Of a DNA stretch of 64,000 nucleotides, positions 1,513-23,691 are shown one piece after another. Position 1 is the first letter of the stretch. Every line of letters starts with the position of its first letter. Source of the DNA: a virus; the IMG/VR virus record IMGVR_UViG_3300043425_001190, positions 23,298-87,297 of that record. One strand, given 5' to 3'. Both the position numbers and the translations under genes were made by a program. Under the pieces are notes generated by a model that did no database searches, was not told the origin of the DNA, and was given only the letters and a program-made list of their open reading frames with translations.

Positions 1513-1902
1513 ATGAAGGTTAAAGACAACTTACTGTCCGTTGCTGAACTTTTCTCTGCTGAACAGGACTCGGTAGTTTTTACCCAGCAATTTAAAACCG
1601 AGTTAACTTCTGAAATGGGTGATGACAACTTCAGCTGGATATTCGACCACAACCACATTGTGACTGATGGTGGGTGGTTAATGCTGAACCGCCCTGATGT
1701 CTATGATGAACTTTATAAGCGGAGTGGCGCAAACACTGACAACAGTCTTGAGACGATCCTTGAACAAGCCAACTTAACACCACCAAACCAAAGTGCAGTG
1801 AAGTTTATCAGGGCGTTAAAGGAACGGGTTCAAATTACTAATCTTGATATTGCCTTTCGCATCAAGCAATGGCTACGAGATAACAAAGATTTCGTTAAAT
1901 AA
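1513..1902 (+). CDS. hypothetical protein
   Basis: 129-aa ORF, 1 nt after upstream stop, followed by terminator hairpin. Confidence 0.65.
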   Translation: MKVKDNLLSVAELFSAEQDSVVFTQQFKTELTSEMGDDNFSWIFDHNHIVTDGGWLMLNRPDVYDELYKRSGANTDNSLETILEQANLTPPNQSAVKFIRALKERVQITNLDIAFRIKQWLRDNKDFVK

Positions 1903-1924: not shown

Positions 1925-1953
1925 GAGGCCCAGGGACAGATTCCTTGGGCCTC
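1925..1953. terminator. hairpin between convergent operons (probable bidirectional terminator)
   Basis: GAGGCCCAGGGA-loop-TTCCTTGGGCCTC inverted repeat. Confidence 0.65.
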
Positions 1954-1957
1954 AACT

Positions 1958-2068
1958 TTATGCGGGTGTTTCACCATCTTTAGAAGACCAGTTGTTACCT
2001 TTATCAACGGCTTCCATCATGGCCTCAGCCTGTTGCAACCCTGGGTCAACCGAAGTAGTAGTCATCAT
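1958..2068 (-). CDS. 36-aa peptide (not in ORF track)
   Basis: MMTTTSVDPGLQQAEAMMEAVDKGNNWSSKDGETPA*; AGGAG 9 nt upstream; starts 2 nt after receiver-gene stop. Confidence 0.55.
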   Translation of the reverse strand: MMTTTSVDPGLQQAEAMMEAVDKGNNWSSKDGETPA

Positions 2069-2070
2069 GG

Positions 2071-2508
2071 TTACTTTCTCCTACGAGCTTTTTCTTCAGA
2101 TTTGTTTATATCCGATTTGGTCATCTCATTAGCGTTTAGTAACTCGATTAGTTTAGTCATCAAACTCATACCGAGTGATGTTGATTTATCCCAGATTTCT
2201 ACGTCCATCGACAACAACGTTTTTCTTGAAGGATCGGCGGTACATATAGCCACTGCTGATGACATGCGTTTAAAATGGTCTTTTAGGCTATACCCATTTC
2301 CGTCTGGTAGTTCAACATCTAAAATCACGATATCAAAATACACATTTGAGGCTATAACCATTCTAGCTTCTGCTAACGATCTGGCCACTTCTATTTTGAC
2401 TCCAGACCGTGCCAACGATCGTTGATAAAATAATATGGTCGCCTCTGAATCCTCGACCACCAGCATTGTCTTGCCAGATAGTAAAGGGCCTACATCGTGA
2501 GCGTTCAT
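2071..2508 (-). CDS. single-domain response regulator (CheY-like receiver)
   Basis: MLVVEDS (acidic pair), FDIVILDVELPDGNG (phospho-Asp), AICTAD (Thr), WDKS (Lys). Confidence 0.85.
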   Translation of the reverse strand: MNAHDVGPLLSGKTMLVVEDSEATILFYQRSLARSGVKIEVARSLAEARMVIASNVYFDIVILDVELPDGNGYSLKDHFKRMSSAVAICTADPSRKTLLSMDVEIWDKSTSLGMSLMTKLIELLNANEMTKSDINKSEEKARRRK

Positions 2509-2510
2509 TT

Positions 2511-3335
2511 TTATTTCTCGTTTGGTTCATCAACCTTACTGAACAAAGCCCCGATAAAACGCCTAGACCAGGAAACCTGGAGGGCTGATGCGTTTATCCG
2601 CTTTTCAATTTGGTTGCACTGGTTTCTGGAAGATTCGTCCCACTCTTCGCACATGGTGTTGTTTAGCTCTACAAATTCTTTTGGTGGGAATTCGGCGCAA
2701 GGAGAATCTGGGCAGACGTCCTCGCATGAAACATTGTCTGTGCTTGAAAACTGTAAGGAAACAAAACCAATTGGCTCTGGTGATTTGATGTTGCTGTCGT
2801 ACAGAATTCTGTGCATAGCCACCACAACACCGGATTCATCAAACGAGGCTGCCAGTTGACCAACCTCAAGGCTGTCTCTAGTGATGGCGTGCCACCTTGT
2901 GTCTTTAATAACCTCGGCGGTATTTGGGTGTGCAGTGTAGATGAATGACACAGCCTCAGGAGTGGTACTGATTAGAACGCCTTTGCAGGAATTGCTGATA
3001 CTGGTGCTACCCGGAGCGCATGATTCACTGTAGCACGACATCTTGGCAAGGGATTTCCCGTTAAAAAACGACTCACCGTTATGAAACATGAATACTAAAG
3101 CTCTTGATGCCTTGTGTCTTATCCGTAGCTCAATTAAAAGATCTCGTACAGCTGCGGATGCCGTATAATGGCGGTGGAAGTTTGGTTTTTTAGATGCCGC
3201 TTTTAAAGACGTGTGCATCTTCTTCGCAGCCAACTTCAAAACAAACGCTACGATTGTTATGATTATTCCGCCAATAATTTCACCAGCATGGGTAGCCAGG
3301 AATGACATTGTTGACTCTGCTACTTGGCTTCCCAT
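2511..3335 (-). CDS. membrane-anchored GAF-like protein, holin T-like architecture
   Basis: one N-terminal TM (IIGGIIITIVAFVL), then LLIELRIRHKASRALVFMFHNGE...SCYSE and PIGFVSLQF typical of GAF-like phage holin domains. Confidence 0.6.
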   Translation of the reverse strand: MGSQVAESTMSFLATHAGEIIGGIIITIVAFVLKLAAKKMHTSLKAASKKPNFHRHYTASAAVRDLLIELRIRHKASRALVFMFHNGESFFNGKSLAKMSCYSESCAPGSTSISNSCKGVLISTTPEAVSFIYTAHPNTAEVIKDTRWHAITRDSLEVGQLAASFDESGVVVAMHRILYDSNIKSPEPIGFVSLQFSSTDNVSCEDVCPDSPCAEFPPKEFVELNNTMCEEWDESSRNQCNQIEKRINASALQVSWSRRFIGALFSKVDEPNEK

Positions 3336-3357
3336 GATCTTTCCCTTTTAATGAACT

Positions 3358-3364
3358 TATTTAA
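3358..3364 (-). promoter_or_regulatory. late promoter-like motif TTAAATA
   Basis: same TAA(A/G)TA core as upstream of structural genes; 22 nt before ATG 3335. Confidence 0.5.
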
Positions 3365-3419
3365 CTGAATGCTTGCGCGGTTATGTGTTGAAGCATATTT
3401 TACTAAAAGTGGAGACAAC

Positions 3420-3818
3420 ATGGACATAAACGAAGATGTAACCCAGCCACCGCCACCATCAGAAACAGACGATGATGGTGGCGGCGATGGCGGTGGTGAC
3501 GGAAATAATAACCCAATAACTCCTGAGTTATTTTGCCGGTATGTGTGGTGGTCAAACCTTGAAAAAACGGCAATAACCACCGGCACATGTGTTGGTTTGT
3601 CGCCAAACAAAAAGGTGGTGGTGATGGATCTGCCTGGCTCAACAGCTGTAGTTGGTGTAGACCATTTAATATCCAAAATACATTCACCACCACTGGAGGA
3701 AAAACCAAAACCAACAGTTGTCATTGAAAAAACCGATACATCTGGGTGGTTCTTGATAGGTGGTATGTTTGCCATGTTGGCATACATGATCTACCTAGTA
3801 ACTTCAAAAGTAGTCTAA
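3420..3818 (+). CDS. hypothetical protein with C-terminal transmembrane anchor
   Basis: GGAG RBS before ATG 3420; PPPP/DGGG low-complexity N-terminus; C-terminal TM WFLIGGMFAMLAYMIYLV. Confidence 0.7.
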   Translation: MDINEDVTQPPPPSETDDDGGGDGGGDGNNNPITPELFCRYVWWSNLEKTAITTGTCVGLSPNKKVVVMDLPGSTAVVGVDHLISKIHSPPLEEKPKPTVVIEKTDTSGWFLIGGMFAMLAYMIYLVTSKVV

Positions 3819-7996: not shown

Positions 7997-8751
7997 ACGC
8001 GGTCGTAGTCAAAGTAGGTTTTGTCGCCGGTGGCCATGTTGATCGCCCAAGTGATGGTGGAACCGGAAAGGGTGAATCCGTTGCCTTCAGTGTAACGGAT
8101 GCCACCAAAGTAGCCAGCGATGGTGCCGGCGATCGGGGTGTATGCCAGGGTCTGGGTGGGGCTGCCGTTGGTGACGGTTGGGAATTCTCCGATCACACGA
8201 GCTGGGGGAACATAGACCTCGTAGCCCTTGCCAATGATCAGGTCATCAGTACCAACGATGCCGGTTCCGGTATCGTTCTTGACAACCCAGACCTGGTCAG
8301 CGTAGGTACCGGCTTCAACGGTGAACGATTTGCCACCAAGATCAACGCCGACAAGGGCGTCAGCCGAGCGGGTCCAAGAGCCACCATCAACGGCAGTGTA
8401 AATGCCGTCGGCGGTGGATGTGGTTTGGCCAGCAACGAAAACTCGGTCTCCGGCGACGATCACTCGGCCATTGATGGTTTGACCAATGTTGGCCAGGGTG
8501 ATGTTAACGGTGGAGACAGTGTCAACAGCGTTGAGGCCCGGTTTGGCCAGGGCGGCGAGCAGGCTGTTAACCTGACCTAGAGTGGCTGGCGAGGTGCTGT
8601 CGACGGCGGCTTTCAGACCGATGAAGGTGGCGTTGTTGGCACCGGCGGTGAGGTCTAGGTCGACACCACCAAAGAAGTTCGCTTTGAAGAGTGAAGAACT
8701 GAGAGTGCCGTCAACTGAGGTACGGTCGAGGTCTACAGATTTGAGTGACAT
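7993..8751 (-). CDS. virion fibre/decoration protein
   Basis: TVNITLA..QTINGRVIVAGDRVFVAGQT..DGIY..GSWTRSAD fibre motif; own late promoter at 8779..8786. Confidence 0.7.
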   Translation of the reverse strand: MSLKSVDLDRTSVDGTLSSSLFKANFFGGVDLDLTAGANNATFIGLKAAVDSTSPATLGQVNSLLAALAKPGLNAVDTVSTVNITLANIGQTINGRVIVAGDRVFVAGQTTSTADGIYTAVDGGSWTRSADALVGVDLGGKSFTVEAGTYADQVWVVKNDTGTGIVGTDDLIIGKGYEVYVPPARVIGEFPTVTNGSPTQTLAYTPIAGTIAGYFGGIRYTEGNGFTLSGSTITWAINMATGDKTYFDYDRV

Positions 8752-8778
8752 GGTTATGCTCCGTGTTGGGTGACAATC

Positions 8779-8786
8779 TATTTATT
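8779..8786 (-). promoter_or_regulatory. late promoter-like AATAAATA
   Basis: T4 late consensus-like, 27 nt upstream of ATG 8751. Confidence 0.55.
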
Positions 8787-9144
8787 ATACTGGGTTATGC
8801 CAATAATTCAAATCGATTTTATCACCGTTGATGAAATTGTCTCTCCACGGTGACAAAAGCAACAGGTTTTGCCCAACAACAGACCACTTACCCGGCCCAA
8901 CCTGTGGGATACTACTGAAGTATACCTCCATAGTATCAGCGATAGGGACGAAATCAAGCGGAATTTGGGTTTGTCCGGTGAGGAATGTGTGTTGTTGTTG
9001 ATGACCTTTATGGTCGCCAAGCCCGGTAAGAGCGTCTTGTACGTTGTTTTCTGGTACGTTGGCATCGGGCACAAACGACACAAGGTTTGCCTGCGTAGGT
9101 TGGTTGATCGTGACGACTGGTGGTTTTCCTGGGTGGAACGTCAT
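8785..9144 (-). CDS. hypothetical structural protein
   Basis: NNVQDAL fibre motif; coupled to upstream gene. Confidence 0.65.
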   Translation of the reverse strand: MTFHPGKPPVVTINQPTQANLVSFVPDANVPENNVQDALTGLGDHKGHQQQHTFLTGQTQIPLDFVPIADTMEVYFSSIPQVGPGKWSVVGQNLLLLSPWRDNFINGDKIDLNYWHNPV

Positions 9145-17100: not shown

Positions 17101-17496
17101 CGAGTAGTCATAGCCTGATGAACCAGAAACAGTGACGTTGGTTGCGGTAGTAACCGACTGTTCTGAAACAGCAGTGGTGTAGTAGTTGAACATTTTTAAT
17201 AGGTCAGACTGTACGGTGCCGGTGATATCCAACGATTCAAACCCACAGGTGTCAAAGTTGGTAACGCCAATCGATCTGGCAATAATCGGCAAAAATCTGA
17301 CGTCACACTGTTCGGTGTCGGAGACATTTTTAACATGTCCGGACGTCACGGCGTAGATGTCATTGAACTGACCTTCGATGGCTTCGATCAGTTTGAAAAT
17401 GTCAGAGTTGGCCGGCACATGCTTCGGTATGATTTCCCGGAAGAAGTTGGCGAATCCGGTGAAAGTTCTGTTAGTGCTTTCCATGACTGACTCCAT
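14119..17496 (-). CDS. large baseplate wedge protein (gp7-like / P2 gpI-like N-terminus)
   Basis: CDVRFLPIIARSIG, NKGSKRAIELLF, C-terminal VEYVKPATS; directly follows gp6. Confidence 0.65.
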   Translation of the reverse strand: MESVMESTNRTFTGFANFFREIIPKHVPANSDIFKLIEAIEGQFNDIYAVTSGHVKNVSDTEQCDVRFLPIIARSIGVTNFDTCGFESLDITGTVQSDLLKMFNYYTTAVSEQSVTTATNVTVSGSSGYDYSSSIVADMINNGDLVLEAEAIVPTSAAYTIGCETDVVSDGVKTIYELITSYIVDGGDDLTDDGVIAAQILGLEFPVASTGGEKYAIFEDRLVYIINKTKWHRKFLMLTVIRMQNKGSKRAIELLFRDYILREMTDYGNNNVGISAVQGAYNFYGRGQTQDVVNNGFDVEVVDLADPWNYFSGDEAAFLNPIVEEPGLNDVYNRYRSKHEMPEYADSDLAWQKTIKDLIIPFVDPYAGSDTGFVVTGSPFDEAVVDGQYTGHPSYPYPVDRYQNGYGTASHMWTSAYADADIGVSGTPSLDGRHGVEIATIGNDTISTTKGYHRYRSVGVDKVSWDAMPEPSYEEAIKLGIEGIYANYSDFVSNTRGTAATLQNALDQFEVDDTYHYFTFNNQGVLKYLFDEEVSGSDDIYNDFQERIPYLTNEEATGENHICPTPRNGEWGSTAASAYQHHPIKQFDSDAFGNKYILTCNLFNVTGDGIVASGTESGYFNTPSSGVLLMKNEEAGSNIGIWVLPAITYGGNNLQGMISDVAVVSDSLMITTFNKQVYFYKLGSNGPISGGAQSTGAREFVCGRVDNESNGYTFVTKLGNQYQYQLYRPENHVWATLCSNTVTGSVVACDVFPSTYPGFALVTGPSPNYYVSRCSQKYGNAVEDLPAWITPAVVGFVGLVVNQVNGDGILMFNVADNDTLYSGLDDYTTAILLKKLVTAPTMDYANESEYDFTYKYYQYNGVGINGAGSVEKEQSFKSQRLKVIDFTINDELLALIMAPVPKLVDTFSGDGVTPMPIDTFAYWDDANNMGMSGTTSGGYTFTDLDNGTTNHYFNLACFINLGSDVDYLTNEIKYNATSLKNMFTFTNDTSYYLPESMVSGGLVNTRRYYRAKLYDSLYFILYDTNASFKHPLVERVAKWYFYNEKARKSGLFDIKIKNFGFSSELSGDSVDPLPGTEKYEMKRHIEATIKEMVEYVKPATSVLRNIVWVNPTESIPPTSSGACLL

Positions 17497-19397
17497 TAGT
17501 ATTCTACGAACCCGATACTATCTACTGTGTTGGTAGCAACGTTGATGTTGTTAATGGAGTATGCCCCAGGAACCACTTCGGCAGTTGATAGACGGTAGAA
17601 CTCAAATTTAGCAAGACGTTTGTCAAAGTTGATGATTTCGCTGTTTGGTGGTGGCACCAGATTGTAATCACCTGAGGTAAACAAAGCGTTGTTGCCAGTG
17701 ACGTCACCGGCAGTGAAGTTTCTTCCCTTCTTGACCACAATACTCATATACTCAATCCGTTCAACCCCAGGGATTCCAAGGATTTTGGTCTTCATGTCAG
17801 AGAAGTTGATGGTACCACCAAGTTTGGCGTTGGCGAAAGATAGCGAGTCACGAATGATGGCATCGATGCTGCTGTTGATCTGGGTGATTGAAACAAGCGA
17901 GGCCGGGTTTTTCTTCACCGAAACGTATGGAATGCAGTTCACGTACACCGGGTCTGTAATAATAACTTCGGCGGTGGCGGCCTTAATATCTTTAATTTTG
18001 CGAACGATGCGTTCAACCACCGGGTGTGTTACATACTGGCCAACAGACGGAACCGAGACAACGTAGATGTTGTTGGTATCGCACGAATCCATTTGTAGAA
18101 CGTTGGATTCAGAGAACCGTAGTTTACCGATAGTGAACACCGATTTTGGGTCTTCGATGCCGTAACCACCGGTATCGTAATACTGGGCCATGTAGGTGGT
18201 CATGTATTCCCAGTTGTTCATCGGGTATGAGTCGTGGAGAACAGAAGAGAAGTTGGCGTCGAAGTATGCGGCGTAGTCACCGATAGAGTTTAGCGATCCC
18301 TGGGTGCTGAAGGTCTTTGGAGCGTTTGATCTGATCTCTGAAACGGTTTCTGGCAGACCACCAAGAGATGATTGTTCAGGCTGCGATACCATCAGCTTGA
18401 TTGGGTCCAGGGTTGTTTCAATTTCAGTTTTTATGAAATCAGATGACGCAACCGGGTATGTGATTCCGTTAATATCAACGTAGTGTGGCAACGACGGACC
18501 GGTGGCAACTTCATGGTACCTGGAGTCAAGCTCGTTGATAGTATTGGTTCCAGTTAAGAATCCTGGTCCGATCTTACCAAACAAATGGTCGGATACTAAC
18601 CGGTAAACCTTAATGGCCTGGTCGCCGATCTTTGGAATAGCCCCGTTTACCCCGTCGCCGAAGGTTACTTCGTATTGTCTATACTCGTTGAGCCGGACTT
18701 CAAACACCTGGTCCTCGGGGCCGGCAAGGTAAAGCGAATCGGTTCTCGCCCATTGTTCGTATTTGGCTGTAAGACCGTTGTAAACGTAAACATCAACAAA
18801 GCCATCGCCGATCTTTTTACCGGTTGATGGTTGTACAAGTTTGATTTTTTGTAAAGCAGATCCGTTGGACGCCGAATTGATTCTTTCATAATACCCGTTA
18901 ACCAATGATAAACGTTTGGTGAAGGTGAATTTTACCCCATCTGGGAGGTCCACGCCATCATCACCGAAGCTGAAATATATGTCTTCAAAAGTTGAATAGT
19001 ATAAATCATCACCAGTGGAGACGTTCTTGGCTGTGGATTTGAAACTGGTGTAGCGTGGGATAACCAGGGTTGGGCTGATATTACTATCTGATAGATAGAC
19101 GGTAAGATCACAATCTACTAGCGGGGCGATGTGACCCTTTGGGATGTATGATAGTGTCTTGGCTAGGGCCACGGCGTTTTCATACATCTTAGTTTTGTCT
19201 AGGTGGCTTTCCGATGCGGCGGCATTGCTCATGTAGCCAAGTAATTCTACACCATACGAAATCTGTCTCAGTAGCGATGACAGATAACTGCCTTCGCTGT
19301 TGTTGTCTCTGAAGGTGTCGCTATCAGCGACATCCGACCGCATTTTAGCCAGGATTTGATCGAAGTCCTGGTTAAGCATTTTAATGTCGTTGGCCAT
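17496..19397 (-). CDS. baseplate wedge subunit gp6
   Basis: DFDQI, FRDNNSEGSYLSSLL, LAKTLSYIPK, VTFGDGVNGAIP, GGLPETVSEIRSNAP. Confidence 0.9.
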   Translation of the reverse strand: MANDIKMLNQDFDQILAKMRSDVADSDTFRDNNSEGSYLSSLLRQISYGVELLGYMSNAAASESHLDKTKMYENAVALAKTLSYIPKGHIAPLVDCDLTVYLSDSNISPTLVIPRYTSFKSTAKNVSTGDDLYYSTFEDIYFSFGDDGVDLPDGVKFTFTKRLSLVNGYYERINSASNGSALQKIKLVQPSTGKKIGDGFVDVYVYNGLTAKYEQWARTDSLYLAGPEDQVFEVRLNEYRQYEVTFGDGVNGAIPKIGDQAIKVYRLVSDHLFGKIGPGFLTGTNTINELDSRYHEVATGPSLPHYVDINGITYPVASSDFIKTEIETTLDPIKLMVSQPEQSSLGGLPETVSEIRSNAPKTFSTQGSLNSIGDYAAYFDANFSSVLHDSYPMNNWEYMTTYMAQYYDTGGYGIEDPKSVFTIGKLRFSESNVLQMDSCDTNNIYVVSVPSVGQYVTHPVVERIVRKIKDIKAATAEVIITDPVYVNCIPYVSVKKNPASLVSITQINSSIDAIIRDSLSFANAKLGGTINFSDMKTKILGIPGVERIEYMSIVVKKGRNFTAGDVTGNNALFTSGDYNLVPPPNSEIINFDKRLAKFEFYRLSTAEVVPGAYSINNINVATNTVDSIGFVEY

Positions 19398-19436
19398 CTG
19401 TATACCTCGGTTATGGGTATACTTATGGAGAAGAAC

Positions 19437-19907
19437 TTACGCTTTGCTGATCGAAATGCCGCTTATTGAAACGTCCCTGTTCAACGCTCTGACAGTAACT
19501 TTGATGTCAATCAACCACCGGTTTCCATTAATGTCGGGGAACACGGATATGTTTGGTGCCGATACCCTTTTCTCCCATCTGGTGATGGCGTCTTTGATGG
19601 TTGCCCCTAAAATAGAAGCGTTGGCATCACTTACGACCATTTTGAAAATATACTGGTCTAGGTCGCACCCAAACTCTGGAAGGTGCACCATCTCACCAGG
19701 TTTAGTATATAGGATGTTCATGATAGAACGAATCACCGCACGTTCATCTTTAAGTGTCTCTATATCACCAGTTGGGTTGAACTTGCCCATGTTAATCATG
19801 TCAAGGTCCGACCAGGTAACGTCGACCGACTGCGGGTCTTTGGCCGATGAGGCGGTTGGGTCGGTTACTACATATCTAATGTTTACCGAGCTTAAATCGT
19901 ATCTCAT
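19437..19907 (-). CDS. baseplate wedge subunit gp25
   Basis: SDLD, AVIRSIMNILYTKPGE..LPEFGCDL, ITRWEKRV. Confidence 0.88.
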   Translation of the reverse strand: MRYDLSSVNIRYVVTDPTASSAKDPQSVDVTWSDLDMINMGKFNPTGDIETLKDERAVIRSIMNILYTKPGEMVHLPEFGCDLDQYIFKMVVSDANASILGATIKDAITRWEKRVSAPNISVFPDINGNRWLIDIKVTVRALNRDVSISGISISKA

Positions 19908-20767
19908 GATGGTACTTCTGGGGTTGGTGGTGGTGGAACCGGTACAATCGGAGCTCCGGTGGGAACTGGTGGGCCACCAACCCCAGGTCCACCAGAGTTA
20001 AGGTGGGTGTGGGAGTTTACAGATCCGTGTACTGACGTGATGATATCTAGAGCACTTACCGTTGCTGGGGTGATTATAGGCCCTAGCACGGTTAGGCTAC
20101 CTACGACCCAAACGTTGCCAGTAATCACCTGTATGGGTGCGGTAATATGTTTACTGGCGGCGTTCTCGACCACATCACCGACAACAGTAGATTCGCTTGA
20201 CCCGCCAACGTACTCATGTAGGTTTCCAGCAGTGGTATCTTTTCTTTTACCGGTAGATTTAAGATGAACACCAGACTTGCTCATTTTGATGTACGATTTG
20301 TTCTTGTGCGTAAACTGTATTCTTTCCTCTCCCGGCGTGCCATCGTACTCTACCGAGCATCCGCCAAACCCAACAACCGAGTTATCTGGATATTTGGCGG
20401 CATACTCTGAGTCGGATTCTTTACCAAGCTTAACCAGGTCTTCTGAGATTTCGCGAGCCAGAGAGTGCCAGTCAGGTACATCGTTTTCTATACACGATCT
20501 AGACCCGTCGTATATTGGGTGGCTAAGACTGCCGTTATCAAAGTATAGTGTGACTATTGTTCCAACTCGCGGAACCGAGAACATACCAGAGTTGGCACCA
20601 CCACCTAGGAAGGTCGGGGTCTTCTGGTAAGCCCATGGCAACCCGTCAGGGTTTAACTCTGTTGACTGATCAGACAACCCTGGAACATAAATGCGGACAC
20701 GGCCGGTCTTTAACGGGTCTTTGTTGTCGACAACCTTTCCAGTATAATAACCGTGATGGCGCATCAT
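19904..20767 (-). CDS. baseplate spike gp5/gpV-like (OB fold plus beta-helix, no lysozyme)
   Basis: GKVVDNKDPLKTGRVRIYVPG, LPWA, VPRVGTIV, EYDGTPGEERI, apex NSHTH. Confidence 0.85.
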   Translation of the reverse strand: MMRHHGYYTGKVVDNKDPLKTGRVRIYVPGLSDQSTELNPDGLPWAYQKTPTFLGGGANSGMFSVPRVGTIVTLYFDNGSLSHPIYDGSRSCIENDVPDWHSLAREISEDLVKLGKESDSEYAAKYPDNSVVGFGGCSVEYDGTPGEERIQFTHKNKSYIKMSKSGVHLKSTGKRKDTTAGNLHEYVGGSSESTVVGDVVENAASKHITAPIQVITGNVWVVGSLTVLGPIITPATVSALDIITSVHGSVNSHTHLNSGGPGVGGPPVPTGAPIVPVPPPPTPEVPS

Positions 20768-22516: not shown

Positions 22517-23691
22517 TTGTTGCCCTTGTAGTTTTTAGATAGTTCCTCAAACGTAGCAGTAGAACTCTTTGATTCAGATGCTGAGCCCAGGTTTATGCCG
22601 CCTTTATCGGCGAAAGCCCCTTTACCGATATACTTGTTTACCACGGTAACCCCGTTTATACTACCACCATGCCCGGCAGCGTACAGCTCTTGTGAAACCA
22701 TTACTAACTCTTTGAACGAGACGTTCAGTTTATATGCTTGCGGAGCCTTAAACTGGCTATCACCACCAAACGAACCCATTTGCTGAGCCAACCCATAAAA
22801 GCTGGTCGTGCCATAGTGACCGGTCGGCCAGTTGGCTATCGCTTTTGCTGGTACCTTCCTATCAACAAAATACCCAACGCTGGCTACCGTAAGGTTATTC
22901 ACGGCAACAAACGGGCACCAATAAAACCCAGGTATTTTAAGTTCGAAAACGTTTGGTGAATAGCGGTATAAATTTTGGTGGCTGTGTCTAATAGCCATAT
23001 TCAGACCATGAATCAGTCTCAAGTTCTGTATAAAGTTTTCATCGGTATCGTTGATCAGGTTTATCTCAACATTGTCGATGGTGTTTGACGACCCAGTCCA
23101 GCTTTGGCCCATTTCTCTGTTGATCGGCATGAGATTCATGAAACTCTTTAACGTGGAAATACCACTGAACATACCAGTAATTGACGACATCATATCAGCG
23201 TCTGACCACTCGGATTGCACACCATATCCAACCTTCTCGGTTATTGGGATACGGTATACATTTGTATATCTACCAGGGTACAGTGATTTAAACGCCTCAA
23301 TGTATGAAGATAACTCCATATTAACATCACCGATACCGTTAACCACCCTGTCTGATGAAAGTTTATGTATCGAGTCAAGTAGGTTTCCGTCGGCGGCTGT
23401 CATCCCGTTAGCAAACGCCTTACCAATGGCTGAACCAGAGGCAAACGCGGTGTTAAACGTTTGTTCAATTTGGGTCAACACAGTGTTCATTGACCGGTCT
23501 AAGGCAATTTCGGTTAGCTCAATATATGGATGGCGGCTGTGATCGCCAAGGTGTGGCACATCAAACGTGGTAGATGAGGTTTGGACGGTTTGTGTTTTGG
23601 CCGTTTCACTAATCTCGTTGGCGATCTTTACAGCACCAGATGTGGTTTGTGGGACCTTAATCGGCGATACCGGTGTTTTTTCGTCTGCCAT
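22513..23691 (-). CDS. baseplate tail-tube cap (gp48-like)
   Basis: YSPNVFELKIPG, YKLNVSFKEL; position after tape measure. Confidence 0.55.
   Translation of the reverse strand: MADEKTPVSPIKVPQTTSGAVKIANEISETAKTQTVQTSSTTFDVPHLGDHSRHPYIELTEIALDRSMNTVLTQIEQTFNTAFASGSAIGKAFANGMTAADGNLLDSIHKLSSDRVVNGIGDVNMELSSYIEAFKSLYPGRYTNVYRIPITEKVGYGVQSEWSDADMMSSITGMFSGISTLKSFMNLMPINREMGQSWTGSSNTIDNVEINLINDTDENFIQNLRLIHGLNMAIRHSHQNLYRYSPNVFELKIPGFYWCPFVAVNNLTVASVGYFVDRKVPAKAIANWPTGHYGTTSFYGLAQQMGSFGGDSQFKAPQAYKLNVSFKELVMVSQELYAAGHGGSINGVTVVNKYIGKGAFADKGGINLGSASESKSSTATFEELSKNYKGNK

Follow-up and report, generated by a model that had tools for sequence, protein, structure and literature searches.

A late-type operon of a freshwater T4-like phage encodes a predicted membrane-anchored GAF protein and a stand-alone receiver, a possible unit of lysis control

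The 64,000-nucleotide stretch analyzed here (the window) forms the 3′ part of a viral contig of 87,297 bp (IMG/VR record IMGVR_UViG_3300043425_001190, positions 23,298 to 87,297) from a freshwater T4-like myovirus, a placement with which its gene content agrees. On the minus strand of the window, an operon of three open reading frames (ORFs) of 274, 145, and 36 amino acids (aa), each separated from the next by 2 nucleotides (nt), combines a single-pass membrane protein whose C-terminal domain is predicted to adopt a GAF fold with a stand-alone receiver (REC) protein and a short putative peptide. The membrane protein belongs to a family that is here called TM-GAF (transmembrane GAF), and we are highly confident of its predicted fold and of its architecture, which in the model is like that of holin T of phage T4. 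The operon is tentatively read as a late unit for lysis control in which a cytoplasmic GAF domain is gated by the receiver, a possibility that we place clearly below an even chance.

The first gene of the operon (2511..3335, minus strand) was defined by ORF calling, family searches, and an AlphaFold2 (AF2) model. Its product has one hydrophobic segment, a membrane helix at residues 19 to 37 (3225..3281, minus strand; hydropathy 2.23), and the predicted GAF fold occupies about residues 52 to 258 (2562..3182, minus strand), as delimited by alignment, AF2 model, and structural match. The 274-aa protein itself has no Pfam GAF match at an E value of ≤1, nor does the contig have one at ≤10, and its family matches comprise only two PHROGs, both of unknown function. 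PF01590 (GAF) is matched by 23 of the 74 aligned family members (best E value, 6.8e-8), and the family profile matches GAF chains in the PDB (E value, 3.9e-7). The AF2 model of the window protein, with a predicted local distance difference test score (pLDDT) of 88.6, was aligned by VIA-align with the GAF structure 6mgh at a Z score of 15.3 and a root mean square deviation (rmsd) of 2.6 over 147 residues; at least 562 chains with a Z score of ≥8 are found among Foldseek's top matches of the model, with Foldseek E values of about 1e-6. According to this model, the protein has the three-layer alpha/beta fold of GAF domains. The description given in the earlier note, i.e., a protein with a single transmembrane helix and a GAF-like domain, is thus borne out.

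An exhaustive profile-free search returned 193 clusters (50% identity) of the TM-GAF family at an E value of ≤1e-3, nearly all with 190 to 260 aa and a common layout, and the nearest ESM Atlas clusters are 88 to 100% viral. In the 74-row alignment R78 and N86 are invariant, and F84, H85, G87, E104, G109, and G190 are nearly so. The resulting R...FHNG...E pattern (R78, F84-H85-N86-G87, and E104) is a signature of the TM-GAF family that is plainly visible in the listed members. The FHNG motif reported for the window protein is hence family-wide, and the cysteine-rich insertion reported alongside it was also confirmed, with C204, C208, C213, C229, and C240 invariant in the close subfamily of five sequences. 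Several other members (e.g., P0026, P0049, P0058, and P0149) carry cysteine-rich CxxC-like inserts between the second GAF strand and the next helix, i.e., in a different place from the C-terminal cysteine cluster of the window subfamily. The polar residues conserved in the family (R78, N86, H85, and E104) hint at a pocket for ligand binding or catalysis, of the kind found in many GAF domains. The top PDB matches of the model are phytochrome and cyanobacteriochrome GAF domains; bilin binding was nevertheless rejected, since the family cysteine C101 is not invariant and a model of T4 T has many of the same top PDB matches.

That T4 T model, which was folded from an alignment of IMG/VR loci with T homologues (pLDDT 78.8), matches the T crystal structures 6pxe, 6px4, and 6psk with Z scores of 24.9 to 23.4. 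The next 47 listed PDB matches (ranks 4 to 50) are all GAF-domain entries (Z scores of 13.7 to 12.4; rmsd of ∼3 over ∼130 residues). As with the window protein, phytochrome and cyanobacteriochrome GAFs make up most of them, and the top-50 lists of the two models have at least 12 entries in common. The order of secondary-structure elements is identical in both. The premise of the earlier note that T has a GAF-like domain therefore stands, since beyond its own crystals the T model matches only GAF entries among the matches listed. In the BFVD, a library of viral structures, the window model first finds its own family, including members from Polaribacter, Tenacibaculum, Cronobacter GAP32, Klebsiella RaK2, and crAss-like phages; ranks 20, 21, and 23 are then taken by proteins of Serratia and Proteus phages annotated as "T holin lysis mediator," "Holin," and "Class III holin" (E values of 8e-5 to 1e-4).

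Membrane topology was predicted from the distribution of basic residues. In the 15 residues after the helix, 196 distinct family members have on average 4.66 lysine or arginine residues (K/R), against 0.53 before it, with more after than before in 190 of them; the window protein has an acidic N-terminal tail and five K/R in the 15 residues after the helix. By the positive-inside rule, this excess predicts a cytoplasmic GAF domain and a short acidic N-terminal tail on the outside. In 15 holin T sequences, counted in the same way, the K/R are evenly distributed (2.8 before versus 2.5 after). The earlier proposal that the basic residues place the GAF domain in the cytoplasm, unlike that of T4 T, accordingly survives as a prediction for most of the family.

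The second gene (2071..2508, minus strand) encodes the 145-aa stand-alone receiver, which was recognized by its PF00072 match and its catalytic residues. Residues 16 to 94 match PF00072 with 38.4 bits against a cutoff of 30.2 (E value, 1.5e-9), and 29 receiver chains in the PDB match at an E value of ≤0.01. Four catalytic residues were placed by alignment with the NtrC-type receiver 1zit, namely, E19 and D20 of the acidic pair, D64 as the phospho-acceptor, and T90, whereas K108 was assigned by its position in the sequence IWDKS and by alignment to a second receiver family (see below). As a member of the receiver family the protein is ordinary; at its C-terminus it has a basic tail of 25 residues. 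The full set of catalytic residues that had been claimed for it was confirmed. A variant of the receiver gene is present on a 229-nt contig from a freshwater metatranscriptome library, and the 12 differences listed, those in the D64 and T90 codons among them, are without exception synonymous; the gene is thus under purifying selection.

No HisKA match was found in the whole 87-kb contig, and a second receiver is likewise missing from it. One ORF exceeds the Pfam cutoff for HATPase_c, located outside the window and upstream of it (contig C1, 14680-16920); its candidacy as a hidden histidine kinase was rejected because it is a homologue of rIIA (phrog_612; E value, 4.9e-52). A second HATPase_c match, in a 409-aa ORF outside the window, is weak (E value, 0.027; 11 bits). 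The absence of a histidine kinase from the window, as noted earlier, thus holds, and for HisKA it extends to all 87 kb.

Apart from a near-identical ENA contig of 2,812 bp that carries the pair (P0001 and P0153), the GAF-receiver combination was encountered on one distant 200-kb metagenome contig (L004), the only hit of a metagenome scan with the closest TM-GAF homologues. There, a 218-aa TM-GAF protein with 41% identity to the window protein over the core is followed, 1 nt on, by a 144-aa REC-like gene (8503-8937). The product of the latter shares 24% identity with the receiver of the window (pairwise E value, 1e-5) and matches PF00072 weakly (E value, 0.0023). A profile search retrieved 11 further receivers of this type, so that 12 clusters (P0164 to P0174 and L004) are known, all stand-alone, 139 to 146 aa long, and 61 to 75% identical; K or R occupies the position of the catalytic lysine in 11 of the 12. 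A GPCP.C insert after strand 1 is present in all of them and a conserved C-terminal cysteine in 10 of 12. The L004 member is the only one known to follow a TM-GAF gene.

With respect to timing, the earlier note had pointed to a TTAAATA late motif in front of the operon (3358..3364, minus strand). The heptamer as such is not enriched in the window (4 copies versus 8.3 expected), but its core TAAATA is depleted (13 copies versus 29.8 expected; at least 13 in 100 of 100 shuffles) and is placed before genes: 10 of the 13 copies lie 20 to 39 nt upstream of the start of a same-strand ORF of at least 60 aa, and 1 more lies at 65 nt. The copy at 3358-3363, 23 nt before the ATG of the 274-aa gene, is one of the 10, and the genes behind the others include those for the tail sheath, the tail tube (phrog_45), a head-tail adaptor (phrog_211), and a head-decoration-like protein. 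The canonical T4 octamer TATAAATA occurs twice. Together with the homologues of gp5, gp25, gp6, and rIIA that are encoded by the phage, this placement makes a T4-type late promoter a reasonable reading and late expression of the operon plausible. The 10 sites (minus strand, 3363, 8784, 14111, 32734, 33354, 35806, 42263, 54935, and 60745; plus strand, 43667) provide a usable map of probable late promoters for the phage. Contigs from RNA libraries (X10) overlap the stretch, and one of them crosses the GAF/REC junction (2487-2717), but they are no proof of transcription, because DNA can occur in such libraries.

In the proposed mechanism, the TM-GAF protein would expose its acidic N-terminal tail on the outside and carry its GAF domain on a stalk helix behind the single membrane helix in the cytoplasm; it would either form holes in the manner of T or, from its place in the membrane, regulate a separate holin. 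The cytoplasmic GAF domain would serve as a regulatory surface for lysis. The receiver might be charged by a host histidine kinase or by acetyl phosphate; once phosphorylated, it would bind or release the GAF domain, and this switch would advance or delay the permeabilization of the membrane, possibly with the 36-aa peptide as a further modulator. The components of this reading differ in strength. For a lysis-related role of the TM-GAF protein we see about an even chance, but an action of the receiver on it, suggested by the close spacing of the two genes and by the like arrangement in L004, is rather doubtful. Still less probable is the most far-reaching version, namely, that TM-GAF proteins are the unrecognized counterpart, with inverted topology, of holin T in many aquatic T4-like and flavobacterial phages and that in the present phage this counterpart is gated by a phosphorylated receiver.

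A number of findings weigh against the lysis-control reading. At the sequence level, PF11031 (holin T) matches neither the window protein (E value of ≤1) nor any of the 74 family members (E value of ≤0.01) nor the contig, and an hhalign comparison of the TM-GAF family with 15 T sequences, although colinear over 137 columns (E value, 7e-4), reached a probability of only 26.4%, which is weak. The predicted orientation of the TM-GAF protein is opposite to that of T4 T (N-terminus in, C-terminus out). The designation as holin T-like is thus supported by fold, architecture, and the BFVD matches but not by sequence; common descent of TM-GAF and holin T is possible, but the window protein is no sequence member of the T family. 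Within the window, no endolysin, holin, or spanin gene was identified beside the operon in searches that covered only PF00959 and PF11031; other lysis genes may lie elsewhere, because the 87-kb contig is only about 40% complete according to CheckV.

The pairing with a receiver is a further weak point. In the retrieved flanks of the TM-GAF gene, a receiver is absent from all 76 IMG/VR loci, and only 1 of 48 whole records has any REC match, far from the TM-GAF gene. The L004 receiver retains the acidic residues and the phospho-acceptor aspartate and lacks equivalents of the threonine and the lysine. No further locus was confirmed when IMG/VR was scanned for such pairs with the receiver of the window, with that of L004, or with an alignment of 13 receiver rows. 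The pair of GAF-TM and REC genes, for which the earlier note proposed a synteny search in other phages, is therefore rare, with recurrence in one distant contig only. A complex prediction for GAF residues 45 to 274 (74-row alignment) with the receiver gave a score of 0.00 in both runs and a mark of 0.32, in a setup without controls, and counts neither for nor against binding.

The gene neighborhoods of TM-GAF relatives also point away from lysis in most cases. They were obtained from a sample of 76 IMG/VR loci that is biased by the search pattern used to collect it, with neighbors counted by local phmmer. The usual neighbors are the baseplate gene gp25, directly adjacent in 53 of 76 loci, and PhoH, adjacent in 11; a DUF7217-like gene is adjacent in 50, and PAAR, gp5-OB, and gp6 genes are located within 3.5 kb in 47, 44, and 40 loci, respectively. 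In contrast, a lysis gene lies within 3.5 kb of TM-GAF in only about 4 of 76 loci: an M15 peptidase gene in 3, adjacent in L033, where it stops 2 nt before the TM-GAF gene, and a homologue of the phrog_3427 holin in 4, adjacent in L037. A lysis cassette is also present in the cultured Nonlabens phage P12024S, in which gp10, which is tail fibre-like, and gp11 are followed by TM-GAF (gp12), an M15 endolysin (gp13), and a phrog_3427 holin (gp14). Membership in a lysis module, as suggested in the earlier note, therefore applies to some relatives, but a separate annotated holin is present wherever such a cassette is seen. In view of the separate phrog_3427 holin of the flavobacterial phages, a regulator, be it an antiholin or a pro-holin, is at least as likely as a hole former. 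In Microcystis phages the TM-GAF homologue has no endolysin or holin neighbors. In favor of the lysis-control reading, PF11031 found no holin T in five records that carry TM-GAF, of which three are ≥90% complete, nor in the present contig.

How much of the operon is translated is a question of its own. The third ORF (1958..2068, minus strand), putatively coding on the basis of ORF call and ribosome-binding site, is acidic (6 D/E versus 2 K/R), and its exact sequence was called on three contigs. The strong ribosome-binding site described earlier was verified as AGGAGA (2077-2082, minus strand), 8 nt before the ATG. Translation of the 36-aa peptide is somewhat probable from these sequence features. 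It is nevertheless quite conceivable, at odds moderately below even, that the 111 nt stay untranslated and form the 3′ end of a transcript of only two genes, terminated at the hairpin: the peptide has no family match and no detectable relatives, the L004 pair lacks a small ORF after REC (the next ORF, of 180 aa, begins 85 nt downstream), and the sole other contig over the region is identical and hence provides no substitution pattern. What speaks against an untranslated end is the position of AGGAGA, the distance of only 2 nt from the REC stop codon, and the fact that the frame fills the space to 4 nt before the hairpin.

This stem-loop (1925..1954, minus strand), detected by its folding energy, begins 4 nt past the stop codon of the 36-aa ORF and is shared with the converging plus-strand gene at 1513..1902. 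Its centroid energy is -20.5 kcal/mol (z score, -3.2), and none of 200 shuffles was as stable. It has no clean T-run and does not appear in the list of the consensus terminator scan; it is probably a two-way terminator. The layout of three tightly spaced minus-strand genes ending at a hairpin, as first noted, was thereby reproduced.

An alternative to the lysis-control reading, which we consider unlikely without dismissing it, is that TM-GAF proteins are late membrane-anchored factors without any role in lysis and that the receiver is a lineage-specific signaling partner. The protein could then be a platform or chaperone for baseplate and tail assembly, an agent of superinfection exclusion, or a cytoplasmic small-molecule sensor or sponge. 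The neighborhood counts given above, with gp25, DUF7217-like, PAAR, gp5, gp6, and PhoH genes, speak for this alternative, and the putative pocket formed by R78, N86, H85, and E104 would suit a ligand-binding or catalytic function. On the other hand, architecture and fold match those of T-type holins, and holin and endolysin genes are neighbors of TM-GAF in an independent phage lineage. The location among structural genes is compatible with a holin as well, since gene t of T4 is found among structural genes, coming after the tail-fibre genes 37 and 38. An exclusion or anti-defense role fits poorly with late timing.

The baseplate association of the family does not extend to the window. At 17496-20767 (minus strand), gp5-OB, gp25, and gp6 are contiguous, and the PAAR, DUF7217, and TM-GAF genes, which precede gp25 in 50 to 53 of the 76 related IMG/VR loci, are missing there. 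Since the only TM-GAF copy in the 87 kb is that of the operon, the gene has been relocated in this lineage, out of the baseplate module. A second conserved context of the family (L050, L052, L055, L063, L064, L070, and L074 to L078) opens with PhoH and a TM-GAF gene of ∼207 aa and continues with a zinc-ribbon protein of ∼100 aa, a sigma-70-like protein of ∼247 aa, and a 349-aa protein.

A further explanation, which we regard as improbable, separates the two proteins, which would then share a transcript and nothing else. The receiver would divert phosphate from two-component or phosphorelay-based systems of the host, as a sink or decoy, or act more generally in host takeover. It is stand-alone and has all phospho-acceptor residues, the 87-kb contig provides no kinase, the TM-GAF family normally has no REC neighbor, and a parallel exists in the buffer role of the Detocs protein DtcB, a stand-alone receiver that is proposed to absorb phosphate signals (bioRxiv 10.1101/2023.01.24.525353). 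However, gene order and the spacing of 1 to 2 nt recur in the distant L004, a late promoter is a poor fit for counter-defense, and PADLOC found no Detocs-type match for the receiver but only weak ones, to SduA and PDC-M60B, across the REC fold, with a 2023 library that may lack Detocs models. For the TM-GAF protein and the 36-aa peptide PADLOC had no match.

The distribution of the family was explored with several further searches. Among 185,579 prokaryotes, searched with one genome per species, the TM-GAF pattern was found at two loci only (L087 and L088), on contigs of 68 to 73 kb from Leptospira adleri and L. ainazelensis; the L. adleri contig (68,167 bp) is probably a phage or phage-plasmid. 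A tblastn search of cultured phages with a TM-GAF protein of the baseplate group (L011) had no match, a search of cultured-phage DNA with the operon region was equally without a match, and single-protein scans of IMG/VR for the closest homologues P0002, P0003, and P0005 (43 to 55% identity) found nothing. Three sequencing runs contain every sampled word of the stretch and may be its source, and identical pieces are present in three further runs of three other studies, labeled freshwater, freshwater sediment, and aquatic. The run labels agree with a freshwater phage; the pieces from sequencing runs (four runs) cover the stretch in part only.

Upstream of the operon, a spacer (3336-3419) leads to a diverging plus-strand ORF (3420-3818) with the ribosome-binding site GGAGAC, which encodes an acidic, proline- and glycine-rich protein with one C-terminal hydrophobic helix and has no family matches. 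A gene for a 5′-3′ exonuclease is located just downstream of it. The minus-strand ORF at 3320..3787, which overlaps the diverging ORF, is probably spurious.

The lysis-control reading matters beyond this operon because most environmental T4-like phages have no recognized holin or lysis regulator. A lysis function of TM-GAF proteins, if real, would allow an entire class of phage genes for lysis to be annotated and would mean that the T-type design also works with a cytoplasmic sensor domain. If the coupling to the receiver is true as well, the lysis clock would directly read the two-component or acetyl-phosphate state of the host, a route of lysis timing distinct from the periplasmic lysis inhibition of the RI type and an uncommon instance in which a virulent phage connects a late function with a phosphorelay module of bacterial type. 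In the literature searched, with subscription papers outside the scope, no coupling of a TM-GAF-type protein to a receiver is described, and no paper joins "holin T" with "GAF" or deals with a phage membrane GAF protein.

Among known systems, single-domain regulators of the CheY type and DtcB share with the window receiver the stand-alone domain of ∼120 residues, the acidic pair, the phospho-accepting aspartate, the threonine, and the lysine. The window receiver differs in being encoded by a virulent-type phage behind a late-type motif, in its coupling to a membrane GAF protein, in its basic 25-residue C-terminal tail, and in having no nearby kinase or effector response regulator. The three-gene Detocs operon (DtcA kinase, DtcB, and DtcC effector) is not what is seen here, as the contig has no HisKA match and no second REC. 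For the class III-type pinholin gp63 of phage N4, a precedent for control from the cytoplasm, PMC12642591 describes a cytoplasmic regulatory region that is proposed to receive an inhibitory signal. Its "Receiver domain" is the authors' name for a short region and not a CheY-like fold.

A membrane GAF protein with a toxic function, and a precedent for a cytoplasmic GAF domain as regulatory surface, is known from Bacillus subtilis. SpoIISA is described in PMC3057836 as a toxin with the N-terminus out and the C-terminus in, in which an extended helix precedes a cytoplasmic GAF domain. Holin-like membrane damage is proposed for it there, and its neutralization is ascribed to the unstructured 56-aa SpoIISB, which wraps around the GAF dimer. 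The cytoplasmic position of the GAF domain, predicted for the window protein, and the presence of a small ORF in the operon are points of likeness. SpoIISA differs in that it is chromosomal, has three membrane segments instead of one hydrophobic segment, and has no receiver partner, and a SpoIISA chain is not among the 24 PDB profile matches of the TM-GAF family at an E value of ≤1. SpoIISB is basic, whereas the 36-aa ORF is acidic, putative, and absent from L004.

The closest comparison is that with T4 holin T. Both proteins have their one membrane helix near the N-terminus, followed by a long stalk helix and, toward the C-terminus, by a globular domain that is GAF-like, at comparable lengths (218 aa for T and about 200 to 275 aa for TM-GAF), and both are encoded by late-type genes among structural genes. 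They differ in that the T domain was crystallized with the antiholin RI as a periplasmic domain, according to the titles of the PDB entries, whereas the TM-GAF domain is predicted to be cytoplasmic; in the R...FHNG...E signature, which belongs to the TM-GAF family; and in the receiver gene attached to the window operon. The TM-GAF protein thus resembles the class III holin T in its design and stands apart from it in sequence profile and predicted orientation.

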